64,000 bases of DNA from Candidatus Heimdallarchaeota archaeon (GTDB lineage Archaea; Asgardarchaeota; Heimdallarchaeia; Heimdallarchaeales; Heimdallarchaeaceae). Positions 31,577 through 63,193 of this stretch are shown one piece after another. The notes beneath the pieces were generated by a model. That model had not been told where the DNA came from. It saw only the letters and a program-made list of their open reading frames with translations, and did not search any database. Position 1 is the stretch's first letter. Each line of letters opens with the position of its first letter. The stretch spans positions 326 to 64,325 of the forward strand of contig JAEOTE010000019.1 of NCBI GenBank assembly GCA_016839945.1, read 5' to 3'. The position numbers and the translations under genes were made by a program.

Positions 31577-31583
31577 ATGGTAA

Positions 31584-33275
31584 ATGGAATGGAAAAAGAT
31601 TTTGTGGTACTGTTTAACTCTCTTCTTATTTGGATTTTTAATCTATTATGTTATTTATAGTAGCATCTACATTATTCAAACATATAAAGGAAATCTGACA
31701 AATTGGGTTGCAATAGTTGGATTAATTTTTAATTTTCTCATTCTAATAGTTGAATTATTCTCAGCATTTTTCTCAGTCTTCATTTACTATTACATAGGTT
31801 CTTCCTCTTCTTATAGAAAAATCGTGGATAACAAAAACAGATTTTTAACTTCTGATCCTCTTCCATCTGTAACTATACTTCTTCCCTTTTATAGAGAACC
31901 TTTAGCAGTAGTCTCGAAAACAATAGATGGGTCATTAAATCTAGATTACCCAAAAGATAGGTATGAAGTTGTAGTTTGTGATGATAGTCCTCCTGAACAT
32001 TCAAAGGAGATTAAAGCATTTTGTAAGGAAAGAAATGTAAAATTTATTCAAAGAGCCGAAAGAATAGGTTTCAAAGCTGGTGCCATCAATAATGCACTAA
32101 AGCAAATTGACAGTGATTTTTTTGGTATTCTGGATTCAGACCATATCCCTACACCTAATTTTATTCGAACTTGTCTATCTGGATTTGTTGAAGATGATAT
32201 TATTTTAGTACAAGGGAAACCAATGTTTGTTAATCAAGATAATTATCTTTTGAGAAGCAGTGCATACATCCATACTCAATTCTTCCATATCTATCAAAAA
32301 AGCAGAGGTACTAGAAATGGAGCTATTTTCGCTGGAACAACTGGAATGTTTAGAACTGACCTATTAAAAGAAGCTGGAGGATTTTTAGAAGATACATTGG
32401 CAGAAGATACTGATACATCATTTGTGCTAATGTCTAAAGGATATAAAACAAGATATATCCATGAAGTTTGTTCAAAAGGATTAGTTCCATGGAATCCTAT
32501 AAGTATGGTAAATCAAGTTTGGAGATGGACAAACGGAATAACATCAATATTTCGAAAAAGATTGTTCACAGTAATCAAAGGAAAAAATTCTTTCATTAAC
32601 AAAGTTGACATTGTTTCAACAGTTTTAACTCCAATAATAGGAATAACAATGTGGTTTGTTTACCTCCTCCTTTTTGTCATGTATTTACTCAAGGAATTCT
32701 CAATTTACGCTGTAGAAATGAATTTTGTAAGACCTGATATGGGTCAAAATATTCCTTTGTTACTTCTAGCTCCTGTTTTGATTTCTTTTGCTAGCTTGAT
32801 AATGGCTCTTGTAGCTTGGAGACGAGAAGAAAAGGAAGACAGAATGATTAAATTGAGAGGATTCTTTGGGATGGTTTGGACAATTACTGCTTTTTATTTG
32901 CTTATGATGACAGCACAATCTTTCCTAGTTTGGGCTGTTTTGAGTGCTTTACTAGGAGTAAAGAAAGAATTTGATAGAACTGTTAAAGAAAAAACTAAAA
33001 CTATGGGTAAGATGAGTAAAAAAATCAAATACACTATCTGGTCTATTGGTTTGTTCATTCTTGCTATAGGTTACTATTTTGCAAGCATTAGATCTTTCAT
33101 ATTTGGTGATGCCTTAGGGGGTTGGTTTATTATTGGGGCAATAACTATAACAATACCAATAATAATAACTATACAACATTTCCGACAATTAGAAACTATG
33201 AAGAAAGTTGCTGCAACTAAAACAGCGGAGGATGTTGAAAAAGAGTATGGTGAAAAACTGAATGGTATCAATTGA
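31584..33275 (+). CDS. processive family-2 glycosyltransferase, copy 2
   Basis: 563 aa with CDDS, LDSDH, AEDTDTS and QVWRWTNG. Same topology as copy 1. Confidence 0.8.
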   Translation: MEWKKILWYCLTLFLFGFLIYYVIYSSIYIIQTYKGNLTNWVAIVGLIFNFLILIVELFSAFFSVFIYYYIGSSSSYRKIVDNKNRFLTSDPLPSVTILLPFYREPLAVVSKTIDGSLNLDYPKDRYEVVVCDDSPPEHSKEIKAFCKERNVKFIQRAERIGFKAGAINNALKQIDSDFFGILDSDHIPTPNFIRTCLSGFVEDDIILVQGKPMFVNQDNYLLRSSAYIHTQFFHIYQKSRGTRNGAIFAGTTGMFRTDLLKEAGGFLEDTLAEDTDTSFVLMSKGYKTRYIHEVCSKGLVPWNPISMVNQVWRWTNGITSIFRKRLFTVIKGKNSFINKVDIVSTVLTPIIGITMWFVYLLLFVMYLLKEFSIYAVEMNFVRPDMGQNIPLLLLAPVLISFASLIMALVAWRREEKEDRMIKLRGFFGMVWTITAFYLLMMTAQSFLVWAVLSALLGVKKEFDRTVKEKTKTMGKMSKKIKYTIWSIGLFILAIGYYFASIRSFIFGDALGGWFIIGAITITIPIIITIQHFRQLETMKKVAATKTAEDVEKEYGEKLNGIN

Positions 33276-36036: not shown

Positions 36037-36078
36037 AATTCTAAAGAGTAAATAAAATTTCCTTGATTTTCGCAAAAT

Positions 36079-39000
36079 TTACCTTCGAGAATATACAATG
36101 CTTTTCTGTTTTCTATCTCTTCTAGCTATAATCAGAGATGTTATGAATGCTATTAGTAGAACAAACACGATATTTATGAAGAAAATAGACCAACTTCCTG
36201 TTGGTGCAAAAGTATGTCCAAAGAAAACAGTTTGATTAGCTGAAGCTAAAAACTTCAAAATGGCTCCTCCTATACCATAACCAAAACAAGCAGCAATAAG
36301 CGCAACAACGCTTATTCGAGAAAAAATTGAAACAAATACATTCAGATTAGTTCCACCAATCATTCTTAGTATGGTGCTTTCTCTTCTACTTTCAACATGA
36401 ACATTTTGCAATATTGAATACATATTTACAACGACAACTATCATAATGAGTAGTATCTCAGCATAAGCTAAGGTGTAAGTAAACAATAATGAACCTTTCA
36501 AATAATAATCCATATATTCTAGAGAAAGAGAAATAAAAAATTCAAAACCAGCATATGCTCTAAAAGGTATTTTCAGCCATTGATCTTCTGTTTCACTTGC
36601 AACAATTATCGTAATAGCTTCTTTTCCAGGTTCAAAAGCTCTTCTTAAATTAATAATATTCTCGTTAAAATCAATAAAAGATACATTTACGTAACCATAC
36701 GAAATCCAAAGGGAAACACTAGAGTAGAAACCTGTTGTGGTAGAAATATTTCCATCAAATAAAGTTGAGAAAACAACAGGTAAATTGAATACTTTAGATC
36801 CATTATCATAAACAAAAATAAATGTAACTTTGCTTCTATGAGAAGGGATTTTAAGATGAGTATACTGATTCGGATTAAATACCTGGAACGATACTGGATT
36901 AGCATTTCTGTGATCTGAGAAATAACAAGTATAATCCCCAGTAGCTAACAAAGTAGAGATCATTCCATTGTTATCAGTTCGTATTGACAAAACTCTTCTT
37001 CCTCTTACATCTCTAAAGATGCAATATTGATCAATAAGAGGTGAATCTGCGAAGTAATCACTTAAAGAAATAGTAACATTAGAAAAACCAATAAATATCT
37101 CTTGTTCTAGACCTACATTTGTGTTTAGAATAAAATCATATTGCAAAGTACTATAGTTAAAATGCACATGATAACTCCCTGAAAATATGTGAAAATCAAG
37201 AACACCTTCATTATTTGTATTCTTTTCATATACCGTTGTATTAAAGTTACTTCTAACTATAACTGAAAAATTAGATAATGGAAGAAGGGTTCCACTTCCT
37301 TGTACTTGGAATAATAATTGCTGATTTACATATTCTTTCCCTACATATATTGTATAGTCTACTGTTTTTTGGTTGTACAAAGAATCTTCTAAAAACAAAG
37401 TTATTGTATGCTTGCCAGCTTCATTAAAATCAACTAAAGAAAATCCTTGATATTGAAAAAGAGGACCTCTGTGATCTAGTTGAACCAATATGTTGACAGC
37501 ATCACTTTCTAAATCTAGAAATACATCTATCTCATGGCTACCAATTTCTGGGGATAGAAAAGTCACATAAGGTGGAATTGTATCAATGATGTAATCGAAT
37601 GAAGATTGAGAATCTGGGAAACCAGTTAATATTGAAGAGAAATTGTAATAACCATCGCTTAAATGAATTGGATTATTATTATTTATAGTAAAATTACAAT
37701 CATAATAAGGAAATGTGACAACTATATCACCTGTATAACTACTGTTAATCTGGTTAGCTTGTAACTGTGAGGAGCTTAATCCTTCTGTAATATTGAAATT
37801 CCAGCTTTTTATTTCATAATTGAAAACATCTATCCAGTATTCAATAACTAATGTATATTCTCCTGGATAAAGATATATCCTTGTATACTCAGTAATTTCT
37901 CCACTAAAATTCGCTTCTCCAAAAATTTCATACTTTATTTGGAAAAAACCTATAGAAGATATGGTTTGAATATCAATAAATGTTTGAGTAATTATTCCAT
38001 AATAATCATGTGCAAAATAGAAGTCTACTGGTGTCGTTCCTGTAAAATTCTCAGTGTTATATTCATAGTATTTCTGTATCAGATTTCCTGCAATATCCCG
38101 GGCTTCTATTGTTAAATTATGATAACCTTCTTTAAATGGACAACTAATCAAACCATATGCATATGAAAAATCTAGATTGTCCCAAGAGTAGCGAATCATT
38201 GAAAGGCTCTCATTAGAAGTGTAAAACATAGAACTCCCTGAGCTAATATCAGAACTATTGGAATGCTCTAATGTTATATCAGGTGGAGAGTTGTCAATAG
38301 TAATTTCATAATCTCTAAAATACCATACTGAACTTATAAGAGTTGACAGATGAAGTGTATGATTCCCCTCACTCAAACTCTCTGCTATAATCGTTCCATT
38401 ATTAGGAACAGGAATATCTACTTGGCTATCCCAATGATAGAGAACATTTGAAGCACCAATAGTATACCAGATCTGAATCTCTTCACTTTCTTTTATTATT
38501 CTATCTTGTAATCCAATAATCCCTAACTTCTCTGGATTTGAGGATGTAATGAAGATATAACTCCATTCTTTATTCTGGTTCCCTATTGAAGCTTTAATTA
38601 CAAGTCTATGAATACCTTTTTCTGCAGGAGTACGAATATTATGATTTTCTAAAATTTGCCAAATATCACTATTCCACTTATATTTAATATTATGACCAAA
38701 GTATATAGAATCGTTGAGATAAAGATTGCTTGAATATGGAATATGAGATCCATTCATAGCATTAAGAATATGCAACTCCTCTGGGAGACTGTGTGATATC
38801 GTAAAATACACTTTTGTTTCAGCATAATTTTGACTCTTATCACCATCAGATTCATAATCCTTGTTATAACATATAATTGTTAGAGAATGAGGACCTTCAT
38901 CAAATGGAATTACAATTTGATCAGGCACTATCTCTCCTTCAGAAGAGAAATGATATTCCTGAATATTTCCAGGATTTTCATCATAATAGAAATATGTTGA

Positions 39001-40260
39001 ATAACCTTGTGTAGCTGAAATTGAAACATTAAGATCATACCCTATGACAAGACTATGATTCTTGGGAAAACTAACTTGAATACTAGGGTGTCTATCTATT
39101 AACACAACTTCAAAGTAGTTATCTTCTCCTGTTGTGAAAGAAAATTCTCGATGATAAACCCCATATCTAAATGCAGCAGTATAACTCCCATTACTTGTTG
39201 TGAAAGATGCTTCTCCTGTACTATTAGTAAATAGACTGTATGATTTTAGACCTAGAACTTGTTCTACTGTAGACTTACTTTGAACAAATATCCAAGCTTC
39301 CTCAATTGGCTCATCTTCATCTGTTATAACTCTAAATGTAACCTCTCTCTCTATATAATTAATAAAAATAGAAATTGAAGTATCTCTTTCCAATATAATT
39401 CGTTTTGGTTCTGATACAATGTTTTCAATTTCTGCTTGAATTTCATATTCTCCAAAAGATAAATTTAAATCTACAATATTTGTGTTTAAAGGATATAGTT
39501 TCAAAGTACCTTTACTACTACTAATAGTGATTGTAGAATTTAGGACTTCTAAGCTATCTGGTGTGTTAAGTATTACTCTTAATGAATATTCAGATGTGAT
39601 TTTTTCCCTAATATACTCTTTATCAACCAAATTTGTGTCTATTTTTACTCTTATGTGGGTAACTCTGTTAAAATTCTCAAAAGAGAAAAATTGTCCTATC
39701 CAAAGAGGTGCAATTATCTCATCATCCAACAATGTTCCTGATCTGAATATAGATTTAACCTTCAGTTCAATTGCAGAATCACTTCTAGTTGAAAAAATTA
39801 AAAAGTATTCTCCTATTTCTAGGTTGTTTCTTTCTGCAAAATTGATTCCAATACTTACTTCAAATGTATCATTTTCGTCTAGCTTATAGCCTTCTTCAAT
39901 TTGAATGTCTGTGAATTCTGAAAATTTATTAACATCAACCCCTCTAAAATAAACTGCTTTATCTCTATAAACTGCAGCAGTCATCACTTCAGGACTGACG
40001 TCAATAACACCATAAACCGTTTTTATTGTTTCTGCTAATTCTAGAGGTAGGACACTAGTATATGGTGTTGAAGCTTGAGGATTGAAAATTACAAGAATAT
40101 CATCGCTTTCACCCAAATAGGAAGTTGTAGAATCAATAATACTTGTCATAAGTATTGCTCCTCCTGTAATTATAGTTGAGCTGATTAAGAAACCAATAAA
40201 AGCGATGAGGATACGTTTCTTGGGTAATATGTTATAGAGAAAAACATTTCTGATGTTCAC
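36079..40260 (-). CDS. giant FtsX/MacB-type permease with ~1000-aa extracytoplasmic insertion
   Basis: 1393 aa. N-terminal TM plus MacB-like periplasmic domain (YGVIDVSPEV..AVYFRGVD...IGINFAERNNLEIGEYF). C-terminal FtsX 3-TM bundle (STILRMIGGTNLNVFVSIF..). The middle is beta-rich with dozens of NxS/T sequons. The GTG start overlaps the upstream stop (GTGA). Confidence 0.7.
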   Translation of the reverse strand: MNIRNVFLYNILPKKRILIAFIGFLISSTIITGGAILMTSIIDSTTSYLGESDDILVIFNPQASTPYTSVLPLELAETIKTVYGVIDVSPEVMTAAVYRDKAVYFRGVDVNKFSEFTDIQIEEGYKLDENDTFEVSIGINFAERNNLEIGEYFLIFSTRSDSAIELKVKSIFRSGTLLDDEIIAPLWIGQFFSFENFNRVTHIRVKIDTNLVDKEYIREKITSEYSLRVILNTPDSLEVLNSTITISSSKGTLKLYPLNTNIVDLNLSFGEYEIQAEIENIVSEPKRIILERDTSISIFINYIEREVTFRVITDEDEPIEEAWIFVQSKSTVEQVLGLKSYSLFTNSTGEASFTTSNGSYTAAFRYGVYHREFSFTTGEDNYFEVVLIDRHPSIQVSFPKNHSLVIGYDLNVSISATQGYSTYFYYDENPGNIQEYHFSSEGEIVPDQIVIPFDEGPHSLTIICYNKDYESDGDKSQNYAETKVYFTISHSLPEELHILNAMNGSHIPYSSNLYLNDSIYFGHNIKYKWNSDIWQILENHNIRTPAEKGIHRLVIKASIGNQNKEWSYIFITSSNPEKLGIIGLQDRIIKESEEIQIWYTIGASNVLYHWDSQVDIPVPNNGTIIAESLSEGNHTLHLSTLISSVWYFRDYEITIDNSPPDITLEHSNSSDISSGSSMFYTSNESLSMIRYSWDNLDFSYAYGLISCPFKEGYHNLTIEARDIAGNLIQKYYEYNTENFTGTTPVDFYFAHDYYGIITQTFIDIQTISSIGFFQIKYEIFGEANFSGEITEYTRIYLYPGEYTLVIEYWIDVFNYEIKSWNFNITEGLSSSQLQANQINSSYTGDIVVTFPYYDCNFTINNNNPIHLSDGYYNFSSILTGFPDSQSSFDYIIDTIPPYVTFLSPEIGSHEIDVFLDLESDAVNILVQLDHRGPLFQYQGFSLVDFNEAGKHTITLFLEDSLYNQKTVDYTIYVGKEYVNQQLLFQVQGSGTLLPLSNFSVIVRSNFNTTVYEKNTNNEGVLDFHIFSGSYHVHFNYSTLQYDFILNTNVGLEQEIFIGFSNVTISLSDYFADSPLIDQYCIFRDVRGRRVLSIRTDNNGMISTLLATGDYTCYFSDHRNANPVSFQVFNPNQYTHLKIPSHRSKVTFIFVYDNGSKVFNLPVVFSTLFDGNISTTTGFYSSVSLWISYGYVNVSFIDFNENIINLRRAFEPGKEAITIIVASETEDQWLKIPFRAYAGFEFFISLSLEYMDYYLKGSLLFTYTLAYAEILLIMIVVVVNMYSILQNVHVESRRESTILRMIGGTNLNVFVSIFSRISVVALIAACFGYGIGGAILKFLASANQTVFFGHTFAPTGSWSIFFINIVFVLLIAFITSLIIARRDRKQKSIVYSRR

Positions 40261-41432
40261 ATATGATCCTCCCTGATAACTTTAATTTTGGATGCTACTA
40301 TTGAAGGATATATTCCTGATACTATTGATAATGATATAGCAAATAAAAAAATGATTCCCACTGTTGCAGCATTAATATTCATTGATAAGAATGGTAATCC
40401 AATAAAAGCTGAAACTAAACCAACTATACCACTTACAGCAAAATATCCAATAAACAAAGAAAGAACAGCTGAAATAACACCAATAAACAAGGCTTGCATC
40501 ATAAACAGAAGAATTATTTGTCCCCTAGTTGCTCCAATCGATCTTAAAATAAATATCTCTTCTTCACTTTCTTTGACTAAGGTATAAATACTGTAAGTTA
40601 TAGAAACAAGCATCAAAGCAAAGAACATAATCTCTAGTAAGGTTAGTGTTTTTACTACCTCTTCAGTTGCATAACGAATAAAATTCTGTGTTTGTTTTTC
40701 TTCCGTAATTTCAAGACCATCAAACTTCATAGTTATTTCTTCAATTATTGTACCAACCTCTCTTGTATCTAAAATAAATAGCTCAATAAAAGACACATAA
40801 TTCAAAGTGGTATTTATAAAAAAATCGTTAATTGAACCTAAAACTTCAATATCAAATTCTTGACCCGTTTCTAGAATATTAGTTATTGTATAATTATCTT
40901 TAATATAGAACGAAGAAGATGAGTTTATTGTAATAATTGAGCTTTCTACTCCCACAATAGCTCCAGCTCCCGCAGTTAGAAAATTCACTATCTGTTGTCC
41001 CATAATTAACTCATTACTCTCTGGTGGTTCAAAACTATAGGTATACTTTGGATTGTGATATTGATGAAACGTAGTGAAATTCAATAAACGCAAATGTGTG
41101 TCAATCTCAATTCCAGTTTCCCCAACAACTGATATAGGAAAATAGAGTTGAGGTAAAATTATATTTACATTAGGTGTTGTTTCCGAATACTCTTCTAGAA
41201 AAGCAATAACCTCTATATCGATTCTGCTATCAGAAAAGCTTTTTTGATTTTCAGTAATTAGAAGATAATGTGATGGTTGGATTATATTTGCCATTCCGCT
41301 AATATTAGCAGCATATCCTCCAACAAGAAGAACTGTTGCAAGATAAATTACCAAAGCTAAGGTCAGAGTCAAAGTAGCTTGATATGTTCTCTTTCTGTTA
41401 TGAAAAAAGAATCTAACAATAAATCTTAGCAT
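40257..41432 (-). CDS. FtsX/MacB-type ABC permease-like protein
   Basis: 391 aa. N-terminal TM, ~230-aa external domain, FtsX signature ILRSIGATRGQIILLFMMQALFIG. Confidence 0.7.
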   Translation of the reverse strand: MLRFIVRFFFHNRKRTYQATLTLTLALVIYLATVLLVGGYAANISGMANIIQPSHYLLITENQKSFSDSRIDIEVIAFLEEYSETTPNVNIILPQLYFPISVVGETGIEIDTHLRLLNFTTFHQYHNPKYTYSFEPPESNELIMGQQIVNFLTAGAGAIVGVESSIITINSSSSFYIKDNYTITNILETGQEFDIEVLGSINDFFINTTLNYVSFIELFILDTREVGTIIEEITMKFDGLEITEEKQTQNFIRYATEEVVKTLTLLEIMFFALMLVSITYSIYTLVKESEEEIFILRSIGATRGQIILLFMMQALFIGVISAVLSLFIGYFAVSGIVGLVSAFIGLPFLSMNINAATVGIIFLFAISLSIVSGIYPSIVASKIKVIREDHM

Positions 41433-47802: not shown

Positions 47803-47911
47803 TAGGACATTAAAACGAATTTCTAAATATAAAGTTGATTATTTGATTTTTTTTAATTTATTTTACTTCATAAAGCAAAAATTTTATAGTGTTCCGAACA
47901 AAAATCAAACA

Positions 47912-49381
47912 ATGTCTTCGTCTTTATCTAAACTTCTAAAAAGAATTAATGTTAAAGATGCAATTTATTTGTCAGTGTTTGCAATTATTATCTTCTTAAT
48001 TGTAAAGATGATGTTTGGAGGGATTTTTGGTCTATCATTAGTTGTTATAGAAAATGGTCCTAGATCAAGTATGTGGCCAACTTATGATCAAGGGGATATG
48101 TTTCTTATCAATCGATGTTCTCCTGAAAAAATAGAAATGGGAGATGTTATAGTATATGAATCAGCAAATTCATTCAATAGCGGAATTCTGATTATCCATC
48201 GTGTTATTAATATTACAGTTTTTGAAGATGCTACTGGATCTCATTATTACTTTAGAGTAAGTGGGGATAATCCTATAACAAACAACAATGTTGACAGTTA
48301 TAATATATCATCAACACTTATCCCTTATGATGCTGTTCTTGGAAAAACTGTATTACTTATTCCAAAAATAGGGTATGTTCGCTTGTGGATGACAAATTTT
48401 CCAGCTATCAGATATATAATACTTGGTGCTCTGATTATATTCGGATTATATCTGATTTTAACACCTGATAAAGAAGAAGCTAAAAAAGCAAAAGATGCTG
48501 TTCAGAAAGATAAAAAGAAAAATATCTGTCTGTTTTGTAAAAATAAGATCGAAAAAACTGATGATCAAGGTTTAGGTGTTTGCAGTAATTGTGGTAAGCA
48601 ATCTCCCTTTTGTGAAATTTGTAAAAATCCTATGACAAGTGATCAAACACTTTTACAAGCTGAAGCATGTGGTCATATTTATCATGAAGAGCATATTTTG
48701 GAATGGATTAAAATAAAAGGAACTTGTCCTGTGTGTAAAGTTAAAATCACTGAAAATACATTAAACATCTGGGAAAGCTCTGAAAAAGATGAGATTACAA
48801 GTTCAACAGAAGAGACAATAGATAAAGAATTCCATAACCTTGGTGAACAAGAAACTGAAACAAAATTTGATTTTAAATTATTCTTAAATAATCAATGGAC
48901 AAAAACAAAAAAGAATTTCAAAGAACTTTTCACAGTTAAACAAAAAAGGATTAAATTAATAATTTTCGTATCAGTAATTTTGTTCTTAATAATAGCTATT
49001 CCAGTTATAGATACTCTAATTCGTTATCCTAATCTAAATACTGCAATAGACGATGTTAAACTTCTGCCTTATAGGGAGTATGAGGATGAATCAATGGTAT
49101 TTCTTCCATTCACAATTTATTTCAAACATGATGGTTCATGGAATAAAGTAGTGAAGAATTTTGAAATATTTGGACTACAAAATGATACCGTTCTATCAAC
49201 TATGAAATGGTATTCTTATTTACAAGTTGAGGGAAATCAGACTTTAGGGGGATCCTTGATTTTTAATTCATTTGAGTTTAACTCTAATGTTACATTGACG
49301 ATTGAAATTCACTACTCCATTCATTATAGATTTGGTGCAGATAGAAGTATGGTTTATACTGAAGATTTTAATTTATCTTAA
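47912..49381 (+). CDS. SEC11/archaeal-type signal peptidase I domain fused to a cytoplasmic zinc ribbon plus RING-H2 finger and an extracytoplasmic C-domain
   Basis: SPase motifs SSMWPT (catalytic Ser), IIHRVI (His) and SGDNP. Three TM helices. CLFC..CSNC ribbon, then CEIC-x14-CGHIYHEEH-x10-CPVC. I prefer ATG 47912, which is in frame with the track start 47843. Confidence 0.75.
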   Translation: MSSSLSKLLKRINVKDAIYLSVFAIIIFLIVKMMFGGIFGLSLVVIENGPRSSMWPTYDQGDMFLINRCSPEKIEMGDVIVYESANSFNSGILIIHRVINITVFEDATGSHYYFRVSGDNPITNNNVDSYNISSTLIPYDAVLGKTVLLIPKIGYVRLWMTNFPAIRYIILGALIIFGLYLILTPDKEEAKKAKDAVQKDKKKNICLFCKNKIEKTDDQGLGVCSNCGKQSPFCEICKNPMTSDQTLLQAEACGHIYHEEHILEWIKIKGTCPVCKVKITENTLNIWESSEKDEITSSTEETIDKEFHNLGEQETETKFDFKLFLNNQWTKTKKNFKELFTVKQKRIKLIIFVSVILFLIIAIPVIDTLIRYPNLNTAIDDVKLLPYREYEDESMVFLPFTIYFKHDGSWNKVVKNFEIFGLQNDTVLSTMKWYSYLQVEGNQTLGGSLIFNSFEFNSNVTLTIEIHYSIHYRFGADRSMVYTEDFNLS

Positions 49382-52555: not shown

Positions 52556-53125
52556 ATGAGCATGTTCGGTTCATTCTCTACATGGTTAAGGGCTAAACTC
52601 AAAAAAGAACAAAAAGCCAAAATTCTTATTCTAGGACTAGATGCGGCAGGGAAAACAACCCTAACCAGATTCATGAGATTTGGAAGATTTGCAGAAAATC
52701 TCACACCTACTATAGGACAGAACATTGAAAGTTTTGAATTTGAAGGATGGACTATTACAGCAATTGATGTTGCTGGACAATCACATTTCCGTTTCTTGTG
52801 GGAAGCTCATTATCCTGGTTGTAGTGCTGTTATTTTTGTTATTGATGCAGCTGATATAGAGCGTTTACCAGAAGCAAGAGATGTCTTAAAGACTCATGTT
52901 TTTAATAATCCGTACATGGAAAATGTACCAACATTAATCATGGCCAATAAACAAGATCTTCCTGGAGCAGTGGAAGCCCCACTACTAATTCAAATGCTAG
53001 GTCTTCATCTTGATTTGAAGGACAGAACCTTTGCTGTTTTTGATACAAGTATTTTACATGGGAAGGGAATTAAAGAAGCTTTTATATGGTTAGTAAATGA
53101 ATTGGATACTCATTTAGAACAATAA
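52556..53125 (+). CDS. Arf/Arl-family small GTPase
   Basis: 189 aa. ILILGLDAAGKTT, PTIGQN, IDVAGQ..FLW, ANKQDL and a predicted N-terminal amphipathic helix (MFGSFSTWLRAKLKK). Collinear with eukaryotic Arf1. Confidence 0.85.
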   Translation: MSMFGSFSTWLRAKLKKEQKAKILILGLDAAGKTTLTRFMRFGRFAENLTPTIGQNIESFEFEGWTITAIDVAGQSHFRFLWEAHYPGCSAVIFVIDAADIERLPEARDVLKTHVFNNPYMENVPTLIMANKQDLPGAVEAPLLIQMLGLHLDLKDRTFAVFDTSILHGKGIKEAFIWLVNELDTHLEQ

Positions 53126-55120: not shown

Positions 55121-58100
55121 ATGACCATTCATTATCTTGATCAACCATCAACACATGCATCTATCTATTCATTCTTAGATGAAGAGATAAAAGATTGGTT
55201 TACAACAAGATTTCCGGATGGTTTTACCCCACCTCAGCTTTATGCTATCCCTTCAATACATGAAAGAAAAAACACTCTTGTTTTTAGTTCTACAGGTTCA
55301 GGAAAAACTTTTGCTGCTTTCTTGGCAGCGATAAACGAGTTATTTATAGAATCTAAGAAGGGGAAGCTAAAAGACCAGATTTATGTCCTCTATATTTCTC
55401 CTCTCAAAGCTTTAGGGAATGATATAAGAAAAAATCTTGAGGAACCTCTGCAAGGCATACAAGATTTAGCAGCTGCAAATAACATAGTAATTCCCAAAAT
55501 AAGAGCTGCTGTAAGAACAGGAGATACAACCCAAGCTCAAAGAACAAGTATGTTGAAAACTCCTCCTCACATTCTCATTACTACTCCGGAGAGTCTTGGA
55601 TTAATACTAACATCTCCTAAATTCTCTCAGAAACTGAAAAGTGTTAGATGGGTAATTTTAGATGAAATCCATGAGGTGAGTTCAAACAAAAGAGGAGTGT
55701 TTCTTACTTTATGTCTTGAATACCTTCAAGCTGAAATAGCTGAGAAAGCGTTTACTCGAATAGGTTTGTCAGCTACTCAAGCACCTATTGAAGAAATAGC
55801 AAGATTTCTTGTTGGTCGAGATGAAGAAAGTAAGGAAAATGATTGTCACATTGCAAATCTCCCACCTCAACGTAAGTTGGATCTTGAAGTGAAGAGTCCG
55901 GTAAAGGATTTATTACACACCCCATATGTTATGGTTCAAGAGGGGATTTATGCTCTTCTTTCTGATTTAATACTAGATCATGAAACATCTATAGTATTTA
56001 CTAATACTCGAAAAGGGGCTGAGAGTGTAGCATTCAAACTGAAAGAATTTTTAGGTGATGAATATTCATCAGTCATTGCAGTTCATCACTCAAGTTTGTC
56101 AAGAGACACTCGATTAGATGTTGAAGATAGGTTGAAAAATAATGAGCTTCTTGCAGCTGTTACTTCAACTTCCTTAGAGTTAGGGATTGATATAGGCAGT
56201 GTGGAACTAGTTGCACAAATAGGTTCTCCAAAAACTGTAGCTAAGTATCTACAAAGAGTAGGAAGAAGTGGTCATTCACTAGATAGATTTGCAAAAGGAA
56301 GGTTGCTAGTTACTGATCGAGATGACGCAATAGAATGTTCTGTAATAACAAAAAGTACATACAGCAGAGATCTTGATAAAGTTCAGATACCAACAAATTG
56401 TTTGGATGTTCTAGCTCAATTCTTAGTAGGGATATCTATAACTAAAAGATGGAATGTTGATGAAGCTTATAATCTTGTTAAAAAGTCATATAATTATAGC
56501 TCTTTAGAATATGATGATTATATTAATGTATTAGAGTATCTGGGAGGGTATAATTTAGAACTTGAGGAAAGAAAAGTCTACCGAAAAATTTGGTATGATC
56601 ACGAAGAGAAAGCATTTGGAAAAAAGAAGAACACTCGAATTATTTTCTATACAAATTTAGGAACAATTCCAGATAGTTCGGATTATCGAGTTGAATTAGA
56701 AACCTATCGAACAAGACTTGGTGCTCTCTCAGAAAAGTTCATTGAAAGATTAACTCCCGGTGACATATTTGTACTTGGAAGTCATACTTATCAATTCAGA
56801 AGAACTGTAGGGTCTAGAGTTATTGTTTCGGAAGCATTCGGTAGGAGACCTTCAATTCCTAACTGGGTAGGAGAAGAACTCCCAAGATCTTTTGAGCTTT
56901 CTCAGCAAATAGGACGTTTCATCGAAGCAATTGCTCAGAGAATCCAAAAGGATGAAGAAACTGAAGTATTAGATTGGATACAGAGATCCTTTCAATGTGA
57001 TGAAATAATAGCTAAAACTCTTATAGCATATGTAAAGGAGCAATTATTGTTTCTAAACACTGTTCCAAACGATAAAAAATTGCTAATTGAATCTTTTATA
57101 GACCCTCAAGGAAGAATGAATCTAGTTTTTCATGCTTATTATGGGAGAAGAGTCAATGACGCTTTATCGAGAGCATTCGCTTATGCTATTGGGTATAAAC
57201 TTGATTCAGATATCGCATCTGCAGTAAATGACAATGGATTCTTGCTTACTTTTCCTGTTGGTAAGATAATGGAAGTATCTGAAATTCCAGGAATTATTAA
57301 TTCTGCGGATTTAGAGTCTATCCTTAAAAAAGCCATAATAAATACTGAACTATTTCAAACTAGATTCAGGCATGTAGCAAACAGAGCTCTTATGATTCTG
57401 AGAAGAAGTAATAATCGAAGTGTTCCTGTTTCTAGACAAACAATGTATGCAAGAAGGATTCTCTCAACACTTAAAGATCAAGAAAACCTTTGCGTAATAA
57501 ATGAAACTTATAGAGAGATTTTGAGAGATTATATGGATCTTGAAAATTCTCTAACAGTTCTAAAGAAGCTTGAAAGAGGAGAATTTCAATACGAGATAAC
57601 ACCTCTTTCAGATATACCAAGCCCTTTTTCTCATGGTATAGTCTTACTAGGCATAGCTGATATTGTTCAGATATCAGATAGAAGCGCACTACTTAGAGAT
57701 TTACATCAACAGGTTTTAGCAAAAGTATTTGGAAAAGAAGGAACTAAAGAAATTCTTTTCAGTAAAGCTCTTGTAACAAGAATTTTCAATAATCGAAGCT
57801 ACAAGAATGAAGATTTACCTATCTTATCACTGAAACAATTAAGAGCTGCAATTCATGCATTAGCTCCAATAAAATCTATTGAAAGCACAAGTCCTAGTAT
57901 ATATCATTTAGCGGTTGATGATCCTTTGAAATTAAGATCATGGGCATTAGCTCTTCACAACAACAAGGAGTTCATAGATATTTATGTAGAGAAAGGGGAT
58001 TTGAGAACTATTCCAGTAAATGATTATCCAATATTCTGGAATGTATACTCAAAGTCAATTGAACTGACAGACATAGATAAGAAAATATTAAAAACATTAA

Positions 58101-60847
58101 AAACAAAAAGCCCTCTTTCAGCACAAGATATCTCTATTGAAATAAAAGAAACAAAAGGTATAACAGAAAATAGTTTGGAAACTTTAGAAAGAGCTATGTT
58201 AGTAACAAGAACACAGTATGAGCTACAGGGTGGAAAAGTGAAATGGAAACATTGTTTAATAGAGGATATTGTTCCTGATCATCTTACAAAACAAGCCAAT
58301 AGACTTGACCCAGAAGAGTGTTTAAAGAAGCTTCTTCTTCGGTATCTCAAAGTAAATGGACCTTCTACCATCCATCAAATAATAGAATATTTGCGAGTAG
58401 AAGAGGATAAAATTTTACGTGCATTAACAGAACTTGAACAAAAGAGTGAAATCCTAAAAGGACAAATAATTGAATCAACATTGGAACCACAGTACATCAG
58501 ATTGGAAGATAGGGAACTACTTAGAAATCTGAGTAATAGGAAGCTTGATTCAATCATTCTAACTCCAGAAGAATTGAACTTCATTCATTATTATTTTGTG
58601 GTTGACAAATATCACCAAAAGGAACTGATGGGAAAAGAAAATGTATTAGGAATTTTGAACACTTTTGGATCTCTAGAAGATTTAAGTTCCTTAGCTGTTA
58701 GAATAAAAGATTATGATATAGAATGGATAAGACAGCTGGTAGAGAAAAACGAATTGATACAAGGAAGGTTTAGCCATGGAAGAATTTCTTATGTGACAAG
58801 AGAGGTGTTTCCCCATTATTATATGGCTTACAGACAATCCTTCAAACTAACAAGAGTAGAAGAAGAAATTATTGCTTCAATACGAAAATATGGTCCTCTC
58901 ACAAAAAGAGAAATTATTGAATTTACAGAGCTTGAAAATGATGTAGTACAAGAGAGTCTGTCGATTTTAGATAAAACTCTCTATTTAGTCAGGAAGTCAG
59001 TTACTACAGGTTCCTTCCTTCCCAAGCACTTCATTCCTAATGTTTATGATATATCTTCTAGATATCTTCCATCTGGGAATCTACCTTCTTATGAAGAGAG
59101 TCAAAAGCACATACTTCTAAAAACAATAAAGTGTTTAGGCCCAGTTTCCCTTGTTGAACTCACTCATGTTTTAGGTTTCAGATATGGTGACGTTGAAAGA
59201 ATGATTAAAGAACTGATTAAGAAGGAAAGAATAATCGAGAAGAAACTTACCGAAAGAGAAACTAACTATTATATGACAAGTGAAAGATTTACTGAAATAT
59301 CAAAGATTAAACAAGATTTTATTTATTCTGCTTTGAGAGAAGATGAAAAAGTAAAGATTATTCCCAGAGATGATCCATTCACAAAACTTGGTTTAAGAAT
59401 CCATTTAAGAGATATATATGGAGAAGGTCACATAGATCCAATACTGCTAGATGGAAAAACCATTGGTTCAGTAGAATATAAATTGTTTAAAGGACAATAT
59501 CTCCAGATTTATGATTTGAAGTTAAATGATGATATTCTATATTCATCACAGATTCTTCAAAAAATATCGATTGAGTTAATAAATTATATCCGTCGTGTTC
59601 ATAAGGTTCTAAGTCTTCAGATTGAGGATATTAATGGTAAATCAGTGTTATCAAAATCAAACAAATTTGTAACTGATTACTTTGTTAAAACAGGTTTCAA
59701 GTTAATAAAAGATACTTTGGTCGGTGGAGACACAGTCTCAAGAGTTTTCCAGAAAAGTATCGTAAATAAATTAGTTATGGATAAACTCTGGCTAAAGAAA
59801 CAAAGTCCTAGTTTAAATGCTGAGATTCTCTTAGCTTTAGTGAATCATCTTGGATTTGTTAGCATCAATGAGATACTTGTTAGATTCCCAGAAAATATTA
59901 CAACAGTAATAGTTTATCTGATCAATAAACTCTTGGAAAAGAAATCAATAATTCTCCAAGATGGTGTTCTCTATTCTCTCTCCTTTGCTAGATACAGAAA
60001 AAGTGGTCTTCGTAGAAGAAGGAAAATAAGTTCTAAACACCAGGAACTTTACAAGAATATACAGAAAGGTTTCACAAATATTCAAGAATTAAGTAATAAG
60101 TGGAAAGACACTAGTGTTAGTCTCAAATCCTCTTTAGCTGTTCTGGAAAACAATCTGTTGATCAGTGTCAAATCTATAGATAACTTCCTCAATCCATTAG
60201 ATTACCAAGATATCAGTTCATTCATTCCAGAATTAGAAGAGGATATAGTTCAAGTAAAACAGAATTACATTTATGACATCGTGCAAAGTTTAGGAATTGC
60301 TAAAGAAGAACAGATTGCTGAGAGAGGAGCAATTCCTGGAGTTTTGTCTAAGGTTAGAATTAGGGAGATACTTGCAATATTGGTTGAAAACGAGAGGATT
60401 TTTGGAGGAAGGTTTATTGAAAATGATTTACAATTTTATTATCTAACAAAACAAAACTATGATGAGCTAATAATGCTAACAAAGAAGGAAGAGTCAAAGG
60501 TTGAATATGCACCTAAGGAAGAAAGAGAAAGATTCTACTTAATCCATCCAACTGATGTTGCTAACATTGTACTAAGGCAAGATTATCCTGAAGGTTTTGA
60601 TGTATCAAATGATAACTATACAGTGATTCTTAATCAGAAACTTGTAGCTCAATGCAAAATAGATGTTTCTGATGAGAAAAGAATTGTAGTTAAGAATCTT
60701 AATCTTGTTCCTGGATTAGAATCAGAAATAGCATACAACTACATAGTAAATGCCATAGAGACTATTCCAACTTCTTCTACTAGAGAAATAGAAGCTATAA
60801 TTATAAAGAAAATAAACAATATCCCAACCAATTCCTTGGTGATTTAA
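55121..60847 (+). CDS. lhr: Lhr-family superfamily-2 helicase with ~1050-aa C-terminal extension of AlkZ/YcaQ-like (HTH_42) winged-helix modules
   Basis: 1908 aa. Helicase motifs: I STGSGKT, II DEIH, III SAT, VI QRVGRSGH. Lhr-specific blocks: YTNLGTIPD, LTPGDIFVLG..YQF, HAYYGRRVNDAL. The core ends about nt 57700. After that come repeated xxLLxxYLxxxGPxTxxxI winged-helix units and two (I/L)xPxDP...ILLxGK beta-units. Confidence 0.85.
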   Translation: MTIHYLDQPSTHASIYSFLDEEIKDWFTTRFPDGFTPPQLYAIPSIHERKNTLVFSSTGSGKTFAAFLAAINELFIESKKGKLKDQIYVLYISPLKALGNDIRKNLEEPLQGIQDLAAANNIVIPKIRAAVRTGDTTQAQRTSMLKTPPHILITTPESLGLILTSPKFSQKLKSVRWVILDEIHEVSSNKRGVFLTLCLEYLQAEIAEKAFTRIGLSATQAPIEEIARFLVGRDEESKENDCHIANLPPQRKLDLEVKSPVKDLLHTPYVMVQEGIYALLSDLILDHETSIVFTNTRKGAESVAFKLKEFLGDEYSSVIAVHHSSLSRDTRLDVEDRLKNNELLAAVTSTSLELGIDIGSVELVAQIGSPKTVAKYLQRVGRSGHSLDRFAKGRLLVTDRDDAIECSVITKSTYSRDLDKVQIPTNCLDVLAQFLVGISITKRWNVDEAYNLVKKSYNYSSLEYDDYINVLEYLGGYNLELEERKVYRKIWYDHEEKAFGKKKNTRIIFYTNLGTIPDSSDYRVELETYRTRLGALSEKFIERLTPGDIFVLGSHTYQFRRTVGSRVIVSEAFGRRPSIPNWVGEELPRSFELSQQIGRFIEAIAQRIQKDEETEVLDWIQRSFQCDEIIAKTLIAYVKEQLLFLNTVPNDKKLLIESFIDPQGRMNLVFHAYYGRRVNDALSRAFAYAIGYKLDSDIASAVNDNGFLLTFPVGKIMEVSEIPGIINSADLESILKKAIINTELFQTRFRHVANRALMILRRSNNRSVPVSRQTMYARRILSTLKDQENLCVINETYREILRDYMDLENSLTVLKKLERGEFQYEITPLSDIPSPFSHGIVLLGIADIVQISDRSALLRDLHQQVLAKVFGKEGTKEILFSKALVTRIFNNRSYKNEDLPILSLKQLRAAIHALAPIKSIESTSPSIYHLAVDDPLKLRSWALALHNNKEFIDIYVEKGDLRTIPVNDYPIFWNVYSKSIELTDIDKKILKTLKTKSPLSAQDISIEIKETKGITENSLETLERAMLVTRTQYELQGGKVKWKHCLIEDIVPDHLTKQANRLDPEECLKKLLLRYLKVNGPSTIHQIIEYLRVEEDKILRALTELEQKSEILKGQIIESTLEPQYIRLEDRELLRNLSNRKLDSIILTPEELNFIHYYFVVDKYHQKELMGKENVLGILNTFGSLEDLSSLAVRIKDYDIEWIRQLVEKNELIQGRFSHGRISYVTREVFPHYYMAYRQSFKLTRVEEEIIASIRKYGPLTKREIIEFTELENDVVQESLSILDKTLYLVRKSVTTGSFLPKHFIPNVYDISSRYLPSGNLPSYEESQKHILLKTIKCLGPVSLVELTHVLGFRYGDVERMIKELIKKERIIEKKLTERETNYYMTSERFTEISKIKQDFIYSALREDEKVKIIPRDDPFTKLGLRIHLRDIYGEGHIDPILLDGKTIGSVEYKLFKGQYLQIYDLKLNDDILYSSQILQKISIELINYIRRVHKVLSLQIEDINGKSVLSKSNKFVTDYFVKTGFKLIKDTLVGGDTVSRVFQKSIVNKLVMDKLWLKKQSPSLNAEILLALVNHLGFVSINEILVRFPENITTVIVYLINKLLEKKSIILQDGVLYSLSFARYRKSGLRRRRKISSKHQELYKNIQKGFTNIQELSNKWKDTSVSLKSSLAVLENNLLISVKSIDNFLNPLDYQDISSFIPELEEDIVQVKQNYIYDIVQSLGIAKEEQIAERGAIPGVLSKVRIREILAILVENERIFGGRFIENDLQFYYLTKQNYDELIMLTKKEESKVEYAPKEERERFYLIHPTDVANIVLRQDYPEGFDVSNDNYTVILNQKLVAQCKIDVSDEKRIVVKNLNLVPGLESEIAYNYIVNAIETIPTSSTREIEAIIIKKINNIPTNSLVI

Positions 60848-63193
60848 ATGTCCTTAGAGAATATAACCCTTAATCTTGAACAATTAAGTCTTTATCTTTC
60901 TGAAAAACAGAACCTATCACACAAGTATAAAGGGATAAATTACAGTCATTCGATTTCTATAATTAACAACATTGTTGTATTTCAAGATACAGAATCACTT
61001 TATGTTAGAATGAGAACATTCTCACCTGCTCTTATTCATTCACTTGTCAAAAACAAGCATCTAGTGCATGCTCCTTTCAAATCTGGAAAATTAGCATATG
61101 TTGGAAAACAGCTCTTATCAAGTTTTTATTATATGAATCTAAAAGAAAATATTGAATACAAAAAACCAGATACAAGAGCAGTATTGGATTTTATTAAAGA
61201 TCAAGGAGCAGCAACTCGACAGAAAATTATGGAATCTTTTAAGTTATCAAAAGAAGAAGTCATGGATATTCTTTCAGAACTTAGAATGAACTTTCAAATA
61301 TTCATGTTCTATGATGGAACTACTTGGACAATTAATCATGCAGACATTCTACTAGATGAAACTCAAATTAGCAAAGCTTCTGCAACCACTGAACTAATTC
61401 GTAAGCTGATCAAAAGCTATGGCCCCATCACGGTTCCTCAAATCATGTCTATTCTCCAGATGTCGGGAGGAAGAGTAAGTACAAGTATCATTGAGTTGTT
61501 TGAGAACAAGAAAATTATTAGAGGATACTTCATAGAAAACTCTAGCTATGAAGCATTCTTAGCAGCTGATGAACTAGAGTATCTTGAGGAATTCCTCAAC
61601 AAATATTCAAGTGAAAGCAAAAAGGAATTAGAAATTTTACCATTATCTGACCCATTAGCTGAATATTGGGCGTCTGCAGATTTTATTAACCTAGGTGAAA
61701 TTCATCAAGAAATACTTCTAGTTTCAGGAAAACCAATATGTTCTTTTGATTATAAGATAATAGGAGATAACCTACATATTCTAAACCTCACTAAATCCTC
61801 TGAATATCCAAGCTTTGAAGATGAAGCAAAAACAAAAATACAAGAATTTTCCGAAAACAAAGGTAAAATTCTTGTTTTCCCAGAATTACGGTCAGAAGCC
61901 CTTGAAAATCAATCAAGAGAATTTGTACAAACACTAACTCAAAGAGGATATTTAGCTAGATCAGATGGATTAGTATATCATGCCTCTAAATTTACTAAGA
62001 AAGAAAGTAGTGAAAGACTACTATCTTATAGTGATGTTTTTGAGCTTCTAATAGACATTCAATCATTAATAAAAACAAGGTTATTTAGTTCTAAAGCTGA
62101 TATTGTTAAAGGGTTGTCTAATCTAGGGATTCCCCTCTCCACCTCCTCATTACTTATTCGGATAGAAACTGGAAAAGATCATTTAGTTAATGAGATGATT
62201 ATTAACAAACAATTAGTATCAGGAAAATTTGGAGCTTTTTTTAGAGGTATTATTTCTTCTAAAGATTACAAAATATTTTCTAAACTAAGCGTTACTAAAA
62301 AAGTGGGAGTATTAGAAGAAAAGACTCTGAATTTTATTAAACAGAAAGAAAAAGTTGACTTTAAACAATTAAAAGCTGCTATTAATCTTTCAGATAGAGT
62401 ATTGTTGTCAACATTACTTCGTCTTGAAACTGCACATGAGATAGTTCAATCAAAATCAGTATCAAATCAAACAATCTGGATGCCTGTCTCTAAGTTTATG
62501 AGTGGAGTTAAAGCAATTGAGATAGAATCACAGAGAGAAGCTTGGATAGACGTTCTTTACAGATTTTTGTCATCAAATCTACCTTTGACTATTAATCAAA
62601 TAGCAAATATAACTGGATTATCAAATACACAGATTGAGGTCTATCTTAAAGAAATGATAGCTTCCAAAGGAGTTAGATCTGGACGCTTTATTGAAGAAGA
62701 AAATGAAGTTCAATTCACAACTAAAGAAATTGAAGAATTAATAGCTGGATACATCTATCAAAGAGGTGAATTGGAAGGACAAAAAGAATCTATATCGATG
62801 ATTTATATTCCACGAAACGATCCTTTACTAACATTATACAAAACCTATCTCCTAAAAAGATTCAAACTTAAATCTCTCTTTATTAGAGCTTTACCCTCTG
62901 ATTTTGCTGAATTAATTCTTATGAATGGCATTCCTGTTACCGCTTTACATTTCAAAAAACAGGAAAAGATTGAGTATGTAAACAATATTGAAATTCTGCC
63001 CGAATACAATGACTCTCACTCTCTCATACTGATATTTAGTGCGATACAAGAGCACCTGAACAAAACAAAAGATAAAGGAAAACGCCAGTTAAGAATAAAA
63101 CAAATAAACGGTGTCTTACTCCATTCAGAAGCAGGAAAAAAATATCTCTCTCTAATCAAGGATATGCAACTTGATTTTCTTATCCAACCTTAG
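60848..63193 (+). CDS. stand-alone tandem AlkZ/YcaQ-like winged-helix repeat protein (paralog of the Lhr C-terminal extension)
   Basis: 781 aa. The ATG directly follows the Lhr TAA (TAAATG). WH units include LIRKLIKSYGPITVPQIMSIL and LPLTINQIANITGLSNTQIEVYL. Beta-units include LEILPLSDPLAEYW..ILLVSGKPICSFDYKI and MIYIPRNDPLLTLY. Confidence 0.6.
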   Translation: MSLENITLNLEQLSLYLSEKQNLSHKYKGINYSHSISIINNIVVFQDTESLYVRMRTFSPALIHSLVKNKHLVHAPFKSGKLAYVGKQLLSSFYYMNLKENIEYKKPDTRAVLDFIKDQGAATRQKIMESFKLSKEEVMDILSELRMNFQIFMFYDGTTWTINHADILLDETQISKASATTELIRKLIKSYGPITVPQIMSILQMSGGRVSTSIIELFENKKIIRGYFIENSSYEAFLAADELEYLEEFLNKYSSESKKELEILPLSDPLAEYWASADFINLGEIHQEILLVSGKPICSFDYKIIGDNLHILNLTKSSEYPSFEDEAKTKIQEFSENKGKILVFPELRSEALENQSREFVQTLTQRGYLARSDGLVYHASKFTKKESSERLLSYSDVFELLIDIQSLIKTRLFSSKADIVKGLSNLGIPLSTSSLLIRIETGKDHLVNEMIINKQLVSGKFGAFFRGIISSKDYKIFSKLSVTKKVGVLEEKTLNFIKQKEKVDFKQLKAAINLSDRVLLSTLLRLETAHEIVQSKSVSNQTIWMPVSKFMSGVKAIEIESQREAWIDVLYRFLSSNLPLTINQIANITGLSNTQIEVYLKEMIASKGVRSGRFIEEENEVQFTTKEIEELIAGYIYQRGELEGQKESISMIYIPRNDPLLTLYKTYLLKRFKLKSLFIRALPSDFAELILMNGIPVTALHFKKQEKIEYVNNIEILPEYNDSHSLILIFSAIQEHLNKTKDKGKRQLRIKQINGVLLHSEAGKKYLSLIKDMQLDFLIQP

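Follow-up and report, generated by a model that had tools for sequence, protein, structure and literature searches.

The window analysed here is a stretch of 64,000 nucleotides (nt) from Candidatus Heimdallarchaeota archaeon (contig JAEOTE010000019.1 of assembly GCA_016839945.1, positions 326 to 64,325 of the forward strand); it is AT-rich, with a GC content of ~30-37%. It encodes a giant Lhr helicase of 1908 amino acids (aa) and, directly behind it, a 781-aa protein without a helicase (ORF2, hereafter the partner) that repeats the modules of the Lhr tail. Together they are a conserved, previously undescribed elaboration of the known Lhr system: in the literature searched we found no description of tandem AlkZ-like modules in Lhr or of a helicase-less partner. 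The features of the pair are listed below (ORF, open reading frame; WH, winged helix; AF2, AlphaFold2).

55121-60847, + strand: giant Lhr gene (ORF; orthologs of 1900-1916 aa with 55-91% identity, in ~21 clusters)
55121-57730, + strand: Lhr core, aa 1-870, with RecA1, RecA2, WH1 and Lhr domain 4 (Pfam, NCBIfam, motifs)
57731-58615, + strand: module A, aa ~871-1165, three WH-like units without an alpha/beta domain (AF2 secondary structure, Pfam, hhalign)
58616-59734, + strand: module B, aa ~1166-1538, complete AlkZ/YcaQ-like module of three WH units and an alpha/beta domain (AF2; Foldseek matches 7lhl, 5uuj and 9zd6; hhalign)
59735-60844, + strand: module C, aa ~1539-1908, second complete AlkZ/YcaQ-like module (AF2, hhalign; no Pfam match by itself)
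60838-60850, + strand: putative coupling junction, with GGTGA at 60838-60842 in the last Lhr codons, TAA at 60845-60847 and ATG at 60848-60850 (junction alignment)
60848-63193, + strand: partner gene, 781 aa, helicase-less paralog of Lhr modules B and C (ORF, BLASTP, hhalign, AF2, Foldseek)
60848-61981, + strand: partner module N (ORF2-N), aa 1-378, three WH units and an alpha/beta domain (AF2; hhalign to module B, E 1e-29)
62015-63190, + strand: partner module C' (ORF2-C), aa 390-781, three WH units and an alpha/beta domain (AF2; internal duplication)

In the ORF list the Lhr frame comprises 1908 codons and a TAA stop, which abuts the ATG of ORF2 with 0 nt between them and in the same reading frame (window 60845-60850). 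The N-terminal 870 residues matched the Pfam families DEAD (1.4e-30), Helicase_C (8e-15), WH_Lhr (PF19306; 3e-31, 108.5 bits) and DEAD_assoc (PF08494; 2e-49, 168.4 bits over the full profile, 1-191), as well as the NCBIfam model PRK13767, with 1065.5 bits for a cutoff of 849. Motifs I, II, III and VI of superfamily 2 (SF2) helicases are readable in the translation as GSGKT, DEIH, SAT and QRVGRSGH. From these signatures we propose that the core is an Lhr-type SF2 3'-5' helicase, similar to aLhr2.

The tail that follows is conserved, though less so than the core: in 21 Heimdallarchaeota orthologs, identity to the residues of the window per 50-aa block is 0.43-0.75 in the extension and 0.59-0.92 in the core. 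The AF2 model of Lhr 871-1908, made from a 45-sequence alignment (predicted local distance difference test score, pLDDT, 85.5; predicted template modelling score, pTM, 0.67), resolves into three modules, A (~871-1167), B (~1170-1536) and C (~1537-1908), with nine WH-like units and two alpha/beta domains between them. Module A takes the position of the WH2-WH3 subdomain in the C-terminal domain (CTD) of bacterial Lhr. Module B carries the motifs PRDDP (aa 1415-1419) and ILLDGK (aa 1446-1451), in which D1418 and G1449 are invariant among 45 long Lhr proteins, and the C-terminus of module C falls just past an 'INN' motif.

In the model of the partner (pLDDT 84.5), a disordered linker (379-389) connects two modules, 1-378 and 390-781, both composed of three WH units and an alpha/beta domain. 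Residues 8-321 align with 392-721 as an internal duplication (E 6.5e-12). Module N contains LSDP (266-269) and SGKP (293-296), and its residues D268, G294, P296 and F300 are invariant among distant partners; in ORF2-C, which has RNDP at 656-659, the invariant residues are D658 and N754. Across divergent partners the constant residues are mostly G, P, L and F, together with the 'DP' turn, 'RGY' and 'ING', which in the alignments look like a structural signature.

BLASTP aligned ORF2 25-632 with Lhr 1165-1784 (E 6e-14), and by hhalign Lhr 1176-1905 is collinear with ORF2 36-760 (E 9e-28); by both alignments ORF2 is a paralog of modules B and C that has no helicase. All five modules are mutually homologous, the ten hhalign pairs having probabilities of 98-99.9% and E-values of 1e-13 to 8e-32. 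Among them, B aligned with C at E 7.7e-32, C with ORF2-C at E 5e-21, and module A with B and C at E 2.6e-29 and E 3.4e-25, module A being aligned over its WH triplet only.

The fold of these modules was recognised by structure comparison. Searches of the PDB by sequence alone, with the extension or with the ORF2 profile, returned nothing meaningful, and the relationship is visible by fold comparison only. With both models, the sole strong Foldseek matches in the PDB were 9ZD6 (DNA-bound AlkX/YcaQ), 5UUJ (AlkZ) and 7LHL (the Lhr-CTD of Mycobacterium smegmatis), with E-values of 1e-9 to 1e-12. The two single-module glycosylases were matched by both models with a probability of 1.00 and a target-normalised template modelling (TM) score of 0.63-0.70 (9ZD6, E 2e-11, 0.67-0.70; 5UUJ, 0.65-0.68), and 7LHL was the top match of the Lhr extension (E 2e-12, target TM score 0.51-0.54). 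Comparisons with single sequences by hhalign were weak: extension residues 116-343 aligned with residues 62-307 of the Escherichia coli Lhr-CTD (E 5e-7), and with YcaQ only the beta domain of module B aligned (E 2e-4). Pfam PF06224, with a gathering threshold of 25.9 bits, scored 43 for the whole Lhr and 19 for the whole ORF2; by module it gave 28.6 for A (profile positions 82-214), 23.6 for B and 19.0 for ORF2-N, with no match for C or ORF2-C.

These results agree with most of what an earlier note on this DNA had read from the letters. The two ORFs stand as it gave them, in coordinates, lengths and TAAATG contact, and the textbook Lhr core is found at aa 1-870 with its SF2 motifs, Lhr-specific WH and Domain 4. 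Where the note had counted at least six WH units and two beta units in the extension, AF2 gives nine and two; the four complete modules that it placed in Lhr (two) and ORF2 (two), with the latter repeating the same organisation twice and without a helicase, are seen in the models, and the fifth copy is module A, the triplet without a beta domain, which the note had left undistinguished. Its assignment of the extension and ORF2 to the AlkZ/YcaQ (HTH_42) family is upheld by the Foldseek matches to 9zd6, 5uuj and 7lhl and by shared beta-domain motifs, 'PxxDP' and 'ILLxGKxxG' being the same as 'LSPFDP' and 'VLPLLhrGqLVGR' of YcaQ/AlkX. The alternative that the note had named, an unrelated repeat family, was not found; the extension has the AlkZ/YcaQ fold. 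A separate candidate, a eukaryote-like link suggested by weak Foldseek similarity to RPC62/RPC82, TFIIIC tauB, UFL1, ESCRT-II and SelB, was rejected as a generic resemblance between tandem WH units, with TM scores of 0.06-0.12.

The nearest relatives of both Lhr and ORF2 are exclusively proteins of Heimdallarchaeota metagenome-assembled genomes. The Lhr orthologs were listed with the full-length protein as query, the extension alone giving 4 matches (low-complexity words). The 33 partner orthologs (~770-790 aa) are likewise confined to Heimdallarchaeota, as are the 28 partner loci found by scanning the GTDB species genomes. All 33 related loci examined have a giant Lhr frame whose end lies within -22 to +68 nt of the partner start, and this frame has 1907-1949 aa where the contig allows and otherwise runs off it. 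An exhaustive profile search of 1.84 billion representatives returned no more than 50 relatives of the partner, each of which either forms the C-terminal part of a giant Lhr or is a protein in its own right, of 700-814 aa. Six of the latter were tested, with 17-20% identity to ORF2, and every one has a long Lhr (1673-1946 aa) immediately upstream. Four of the 33 loci (L008-L011) hold very divergent partners, and two more such partners (L040, L041) also follow a long Lhr; in these six loci Lhr shares 24-43% identity with the nearest relatives that we found. Contigs bearing divergent partners include those of ERZ25073868, IMG 3300076001 and GCA_024280435.1. Two doubts raised in the earlier note are thereby settled: the linkage is not unique to one assembly, and the 1908-aa ORF, which recurs in ~21 ortholog clusters, is not a mis-assembled fusion. 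We reject such an artefact on the strength of these clusters and of the conserved linkage.

The junction itself is also conserved. At most Heimdallarchaeota loci it reads (c/t)tGGTGAa(a/t)TAA-ATG, with a GGTGA resembling a Shine-Dalgarno (SD) sequence and, in most, a gap of 0 nt; in divergent lineages the Lhr and partner genes are out of frame with each other, at offsets of -8, -22, +10, +43 or +68 nt. An SD sequence followed by stop and start codons is the classic arrangement for translational coupling in prokaryotic operons, and we infer that Lhr and its partner are translationally coupled.

Other genes were seen beside the divergent pairs. Directly upstream of the pair of L008 is a gene for a 493-aa PolX-like protein with HHH_5 and DNA-polymerase-lambda-fingers domains (L008:500-1981), a neighbour with a flavour of DNA repair, and just downstream of the very divergent pair of L010 lies a 117-aa WH protein of the E2F/TDP type (PF02319; L010:6083-6436). 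L011 and L041 share a wider synteny, in which the pair is preceded by a class II ribonucleotide reductase gene and followed by OB-fold, thiolase and enoyl-CoA hydratase genes.

The catalytic potential of the modules was examined against what is known of the glycosylases. YcaQ/AlkX depends on two elements: a Q-x-D on the strand of WH1, which precedes a conserved Arg by seven to nine residues, and the DNA-binding loop (DBL), a beta-hairpin of the beta domain (PMC13303869). We placed the Q-x-D position in the complete modules from the helix-strand-helix order in the AF2 models together with the Arg at +7 (R54 in ORF2; R1194 in Lhr, invariant among the 45 long Lhr), a gapless register guided by secondary structure and not a profile alignment. 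It reads as follows.

ORF2-N: F45-Q46-D47 (Q45-I46-D47 in YcaQ)
Lhr-B: L1185-E-D1187
Lhr-C: F-V-S
ORF2-C: P-L-S

The QxQ/QxD motif is thus retained in none of the four complete modules. The Asp position of ORF2-N is H in 45%-identical orthologs and is absent from distant partners; the column of Lhr-B is D, T, L or M across long Lhr. When module B was aligned with YcaQ by hhalign, a 15-residue gap fell exactly over FDFSYRLECYTPAPK, the DNA-binding loop; in the three other modules measured, the spacing from DP to G is 26-36 residues, compared with 41 in YcaQ, and the AF2 models have coil or helix at the DBL site instead of a hairpin. Finally, the equivalent of Asp-1536 of E. coli Lhr, placed by a gapless G1527...G1538 register, is aa 1534 (residue 664 of the extension), a V here and V, I, A or L in the 45 long archaeal Lhr, and Lhr-C and most partner C-termini stop before this position. 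The few invariant polar residues are D1418, D268, D658, R1194 and R438. The earlier note had found the Q-x-Q/D motif not obviously conserved, with FQDT in the paralog and no Gln at the equivalent spot of the Lhr extension; its absence is confirmed here, and to it are added the deletion of the DBL and a hydrophobic residue at the D1536 site. The modules are members of the HTH_42 fold superfamily that lack the hallmarks of AlkZ/YcaQ-type enzymes.

Long Lhr proteins are widespread in archaea. Thermoplasmata, Methanomassiliicoccales and Asgard archaea (Odin-, Njord- and others) commonly have forms of 1775-2650 aa, which align through module C. The premise of the earlier note, that archaeal Lhr usually has about 900 aa, is thus only partly right, in that it fits the characterised enzymes, and the size of the Lhr in the window is not exceptional. 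Hajj et al. (2021) described a long aLhr2 whose tail gave an HTH_42 match in Methanomassiliicoccales and had no assignment in Thermoplasmatales (PMC8301817). These belong to the same clade as the Lhr in the window, and proteins of ~1790-1800 aa from these groups cover 80-96% of it, through module C; they differ in that one or no HTH_42 match, and neither tandem modules nor a partner, was described for them (PMC8301817). Some of the giant Asgard/Odin Lhr (P0065, P0072, P0073, P0075 and P0080) contain intein domains (PF14890, PF14528), which account for part of their lengths of up to 2648 aa.

The full-length bacterial Lhr ('bLhr-HTH'; M. smegmatis, 1507 aa, PDB 7LHL/5V9X; E. coli, 1538 aa) shares with our protein the same core, then a WH subdomain and an AlkZ-like module of three WH units and a beta domain without QxQ, the equivalents of A and B. 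With an archaeal long-Lhr profile, 7lhl scored 17 bits above a core-only chain. However, the E. coli and M. smegmatis proteins stop after module B, and the second complete module, C, sets our protein apart from them; the bacterial enzyme is a homo-tetramer of single-module tails without a partner, whereas here a separate gene encodes two modules, and the mycobacterial lhr is paired with nei2 instead. The uracil-DNA glycosylase (UDG) residue D1536 of E. coli Lhr has no equivalent here. The interstrand-crosslink DNA glycosylases AlkZ, YcaQ and AlkX themselves (HTH_42, PF06224; 5UUJ, 9ZD6) have the same three-WH and beta architecture (TM 0.63-0.70) and similar beta-domain motifs of the 'PFDP' and 'LPLLxxGxLVGR' types, but they are single-module monomers with the essential QxQ/QxD and DNA-binding loop, both missing here, where moreover four of the five modules score at or below the Pfam threshold. 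A 2344-aa Asgard Lhr (P0060-P0063, of which P0063 is L005:1044-8078) has the same core and modules A, B and C, but in it a third complete module, D (1945-2342), is fused in cis and the downstream gene encodes an HD-domain protein, not a partner. The partner-family profile matched residues 1155-1921 of this Lhr at E 2.6e-64 and the Heimdallarchaeota Lhr tail at E 4e-25; this better match of its B and C region hints at the origin of the partner gene.

Lhr is a widespread and poorly understood repair helicase, and the role of its glycosylase-like tail is disputed, either a scaffold for tetramerisation or a uracil glycosylase. The Lhr-CTD of M. smegmatis is the nucleus of a homo-tetramer that buries the AlkZ-like groove; disruption of the tetramer abolishes crosslink repair in vivo and leaves helicase activity in vitro unharmed, so that what is needed in vivo from the CTD is tetramerisation and not a glycosylase site (PMC8053096, PMC9841417). 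By analogy, the archaeal modules may be assembly elements too, and the partner, a paralog of the assembling part with a coupled stoichiometry, most probably co-assembles with the Lhr tail. We therefore favour on balance, with moderate confidence and by analogy with the bacterial enzyme, a coupled operon of Lhr and partner whose non-catalytic scaffold modules co-assemble into a hetero-oligomer. In such a scheme the Lhr C-terminal domain would have been enlarged by module duplication into the WH triplet A followed by the complete AlkZ/YcaQ-fold modules B and C, and the second gene would be a duplicate of the B and C segment that lost the helicase. The modules would act as protein-protein scaffolds, possibly contacting nucleic acid, as in the M. 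smegmatis Lhr-CTD; homotypic contacts between modules would bring the partner to the Lhr tail, and the resulting complex would determine how many helicase motors act, and in what geometry, on stalled forks, crosslinks or RNA:DNA hybrids. Scaffolding or oligomerisation is better supported than lesion recognition, which is pure inference.

A bolder version of this scheme is that the four complete modules, two of Lhr and two of the partner, rebuild the four-module cylinder of the bacterial Lhr tetramer as a 'pseudo-tetramer', in which one helicase motor (two if the complex is 2:2) would take the place of four. We find this version appealing but rather doubtful. If true, the series of duplications, fissions and fusions (A+B, as in the bacterial Lhr compared; A+B+C; A+B+C+D; A+B+C plus partner) would tune the motor stoichiometry of a repair helicase, and such tuning would have arisen in the archaeal lineage closest to eukaryotes.

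Several observations weigh against the scaffold and co-assembly scheme. No partner gene adjoins lhr at the 1803-aa Thermoplasmata, 1901-aa Asgardarchaeia and 2344-aa loci that were checked, and because several giant Lhr have no adjacent partner gene, the partner is not universally required by giant Lhr. The isoelectric points of modules B, C and ORF2-C (8.3-9.3) make them mildly basic, compatible with nucleic-acid binding. Furthermore, the E. coli Lhr-CTD, which is also without QxQ, was reported as a UDG requiring Asp-1536 (PMC10953399), so that a missing canonical motif is no proof against catalysis. The last two points lend themselves to a different reading, in which at least one module uses a non-canonical active site to work as a DNA glycosylase or lesion-processing enzyme, and Lhr delivers several lesion-excising units to damaged DNA. 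The AlkZ/YcaQ/AlkX fold, the reported activity of the E. coli domain, the basic character of several modules and the Asp kept here at the YcaQ D47 equivalent in ORF2-N and Lhr-B would fit it; yet the Gln of QxD is F or L, that Asp is variable (H in 45%-identical partners, D/T/L/M in long Lhr), the 15-residue DNA-binding loop, essential in AlkX/AlkZ, is deleted, the D1536 equivalent is hydrophobic, and the family alignments show no striking set of conserved polar residues. We regard an active glycosylase as unlikely.

The partner could also be an independent multi-WH transcription regulator that merely lies beside lhr and perhaps regulates it. Sub-threshold matches of single WH units to MarR, HTH_24, HTH_5 and IclR, and the Joint Genome Institute annotation 'GbsR/MarR family', point in that direction, but all of these matches are below the gathering score, the whole protein consists of two AlkZ/YcaQ-like modules collinear with the Lhr tail, and the SD-stop-start arrangement and constant site directly behind lhr across very divergent lineages favour a stoichiometric partner, which makes a regulator very improbable. 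Alternatively, both ORFs might belong to a single 2690-aa Lhr that has four complete modules and is either interrupted by a sequencing error or completed in vivo through stop-codon readthrough, as the in-frame TAA-ATG and the existence of fused forms with three complete modules (the 2344-aa family, A+B+C+D) could suggest. This is extremely improbable, given that all independent Heimdallarchaeota assemblies have the TAA, with the SD-like GGTGA before it and the ATG after it, and that distant lineages have the genes overlapping or out of frame at the offsets given above. TAA is, moreover, not known as a recoded stop codon in archaea.

The natural series of module numbers, with a strictly linked separate partner in some lineages, offers a ready-made experiment on module function. 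Should the modules be assembly elements, one would expect the partner to cap the oligomer or complete it, with a change in helicase stoichiometry; should they be enzymes, the conserved residues found here are candidates. The working assumption of a ~900-aa archaeal Lhr is corrected, and a conserved 'hypothetical/MarR-like' gene family of Heimdallarchaeota gains a name and an architecture. These results will be of interest mainly to specialists of DNA repair and of Asgard archaea, with the main caveat that function is assigned by analogy.

Around the pair, the gene order of the window is syntenic with other Heimdallarchaeota contigs: RpoK, an Arf-family GTPase, a PUA/RsmB-like methyltransferase, a GNAT protein, Lhr, ORF2 and Memo. 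The Arf-family small GTPase lies at 52556-53125 (+ strand; Pfam Arf, 147.8 bits), and two related Heimdallarchaeota loci (L001 and L002) have two or three additional Arf/Ras-like GTPase genes around the Lhr pair. L002 also contains, near its Lhr pair, a gene for a 6003-aa protein without a Pfam match that runs off the end of the locus (L002:16429-22367, - strand).

Elsewhere in the window, a 512-aa RING-finger protein (47843-49381, + strand; zf-RING_2, 35.4 bits) is of a eukaryote-signature type within an archaeal genome. The regions 29855-36036 (+ strand) and 36079-41432 (- strand) encode two GT2 glycosyltransferases and a 924-aa protein resembling dolichyl-phosphate-mannose protein mannosyltransferase (PMT-like), and a pair of FtsX/MacB-type permeases (1393 aa and 391 aa) adjoins these genes in the same part of the window (29855-41432).

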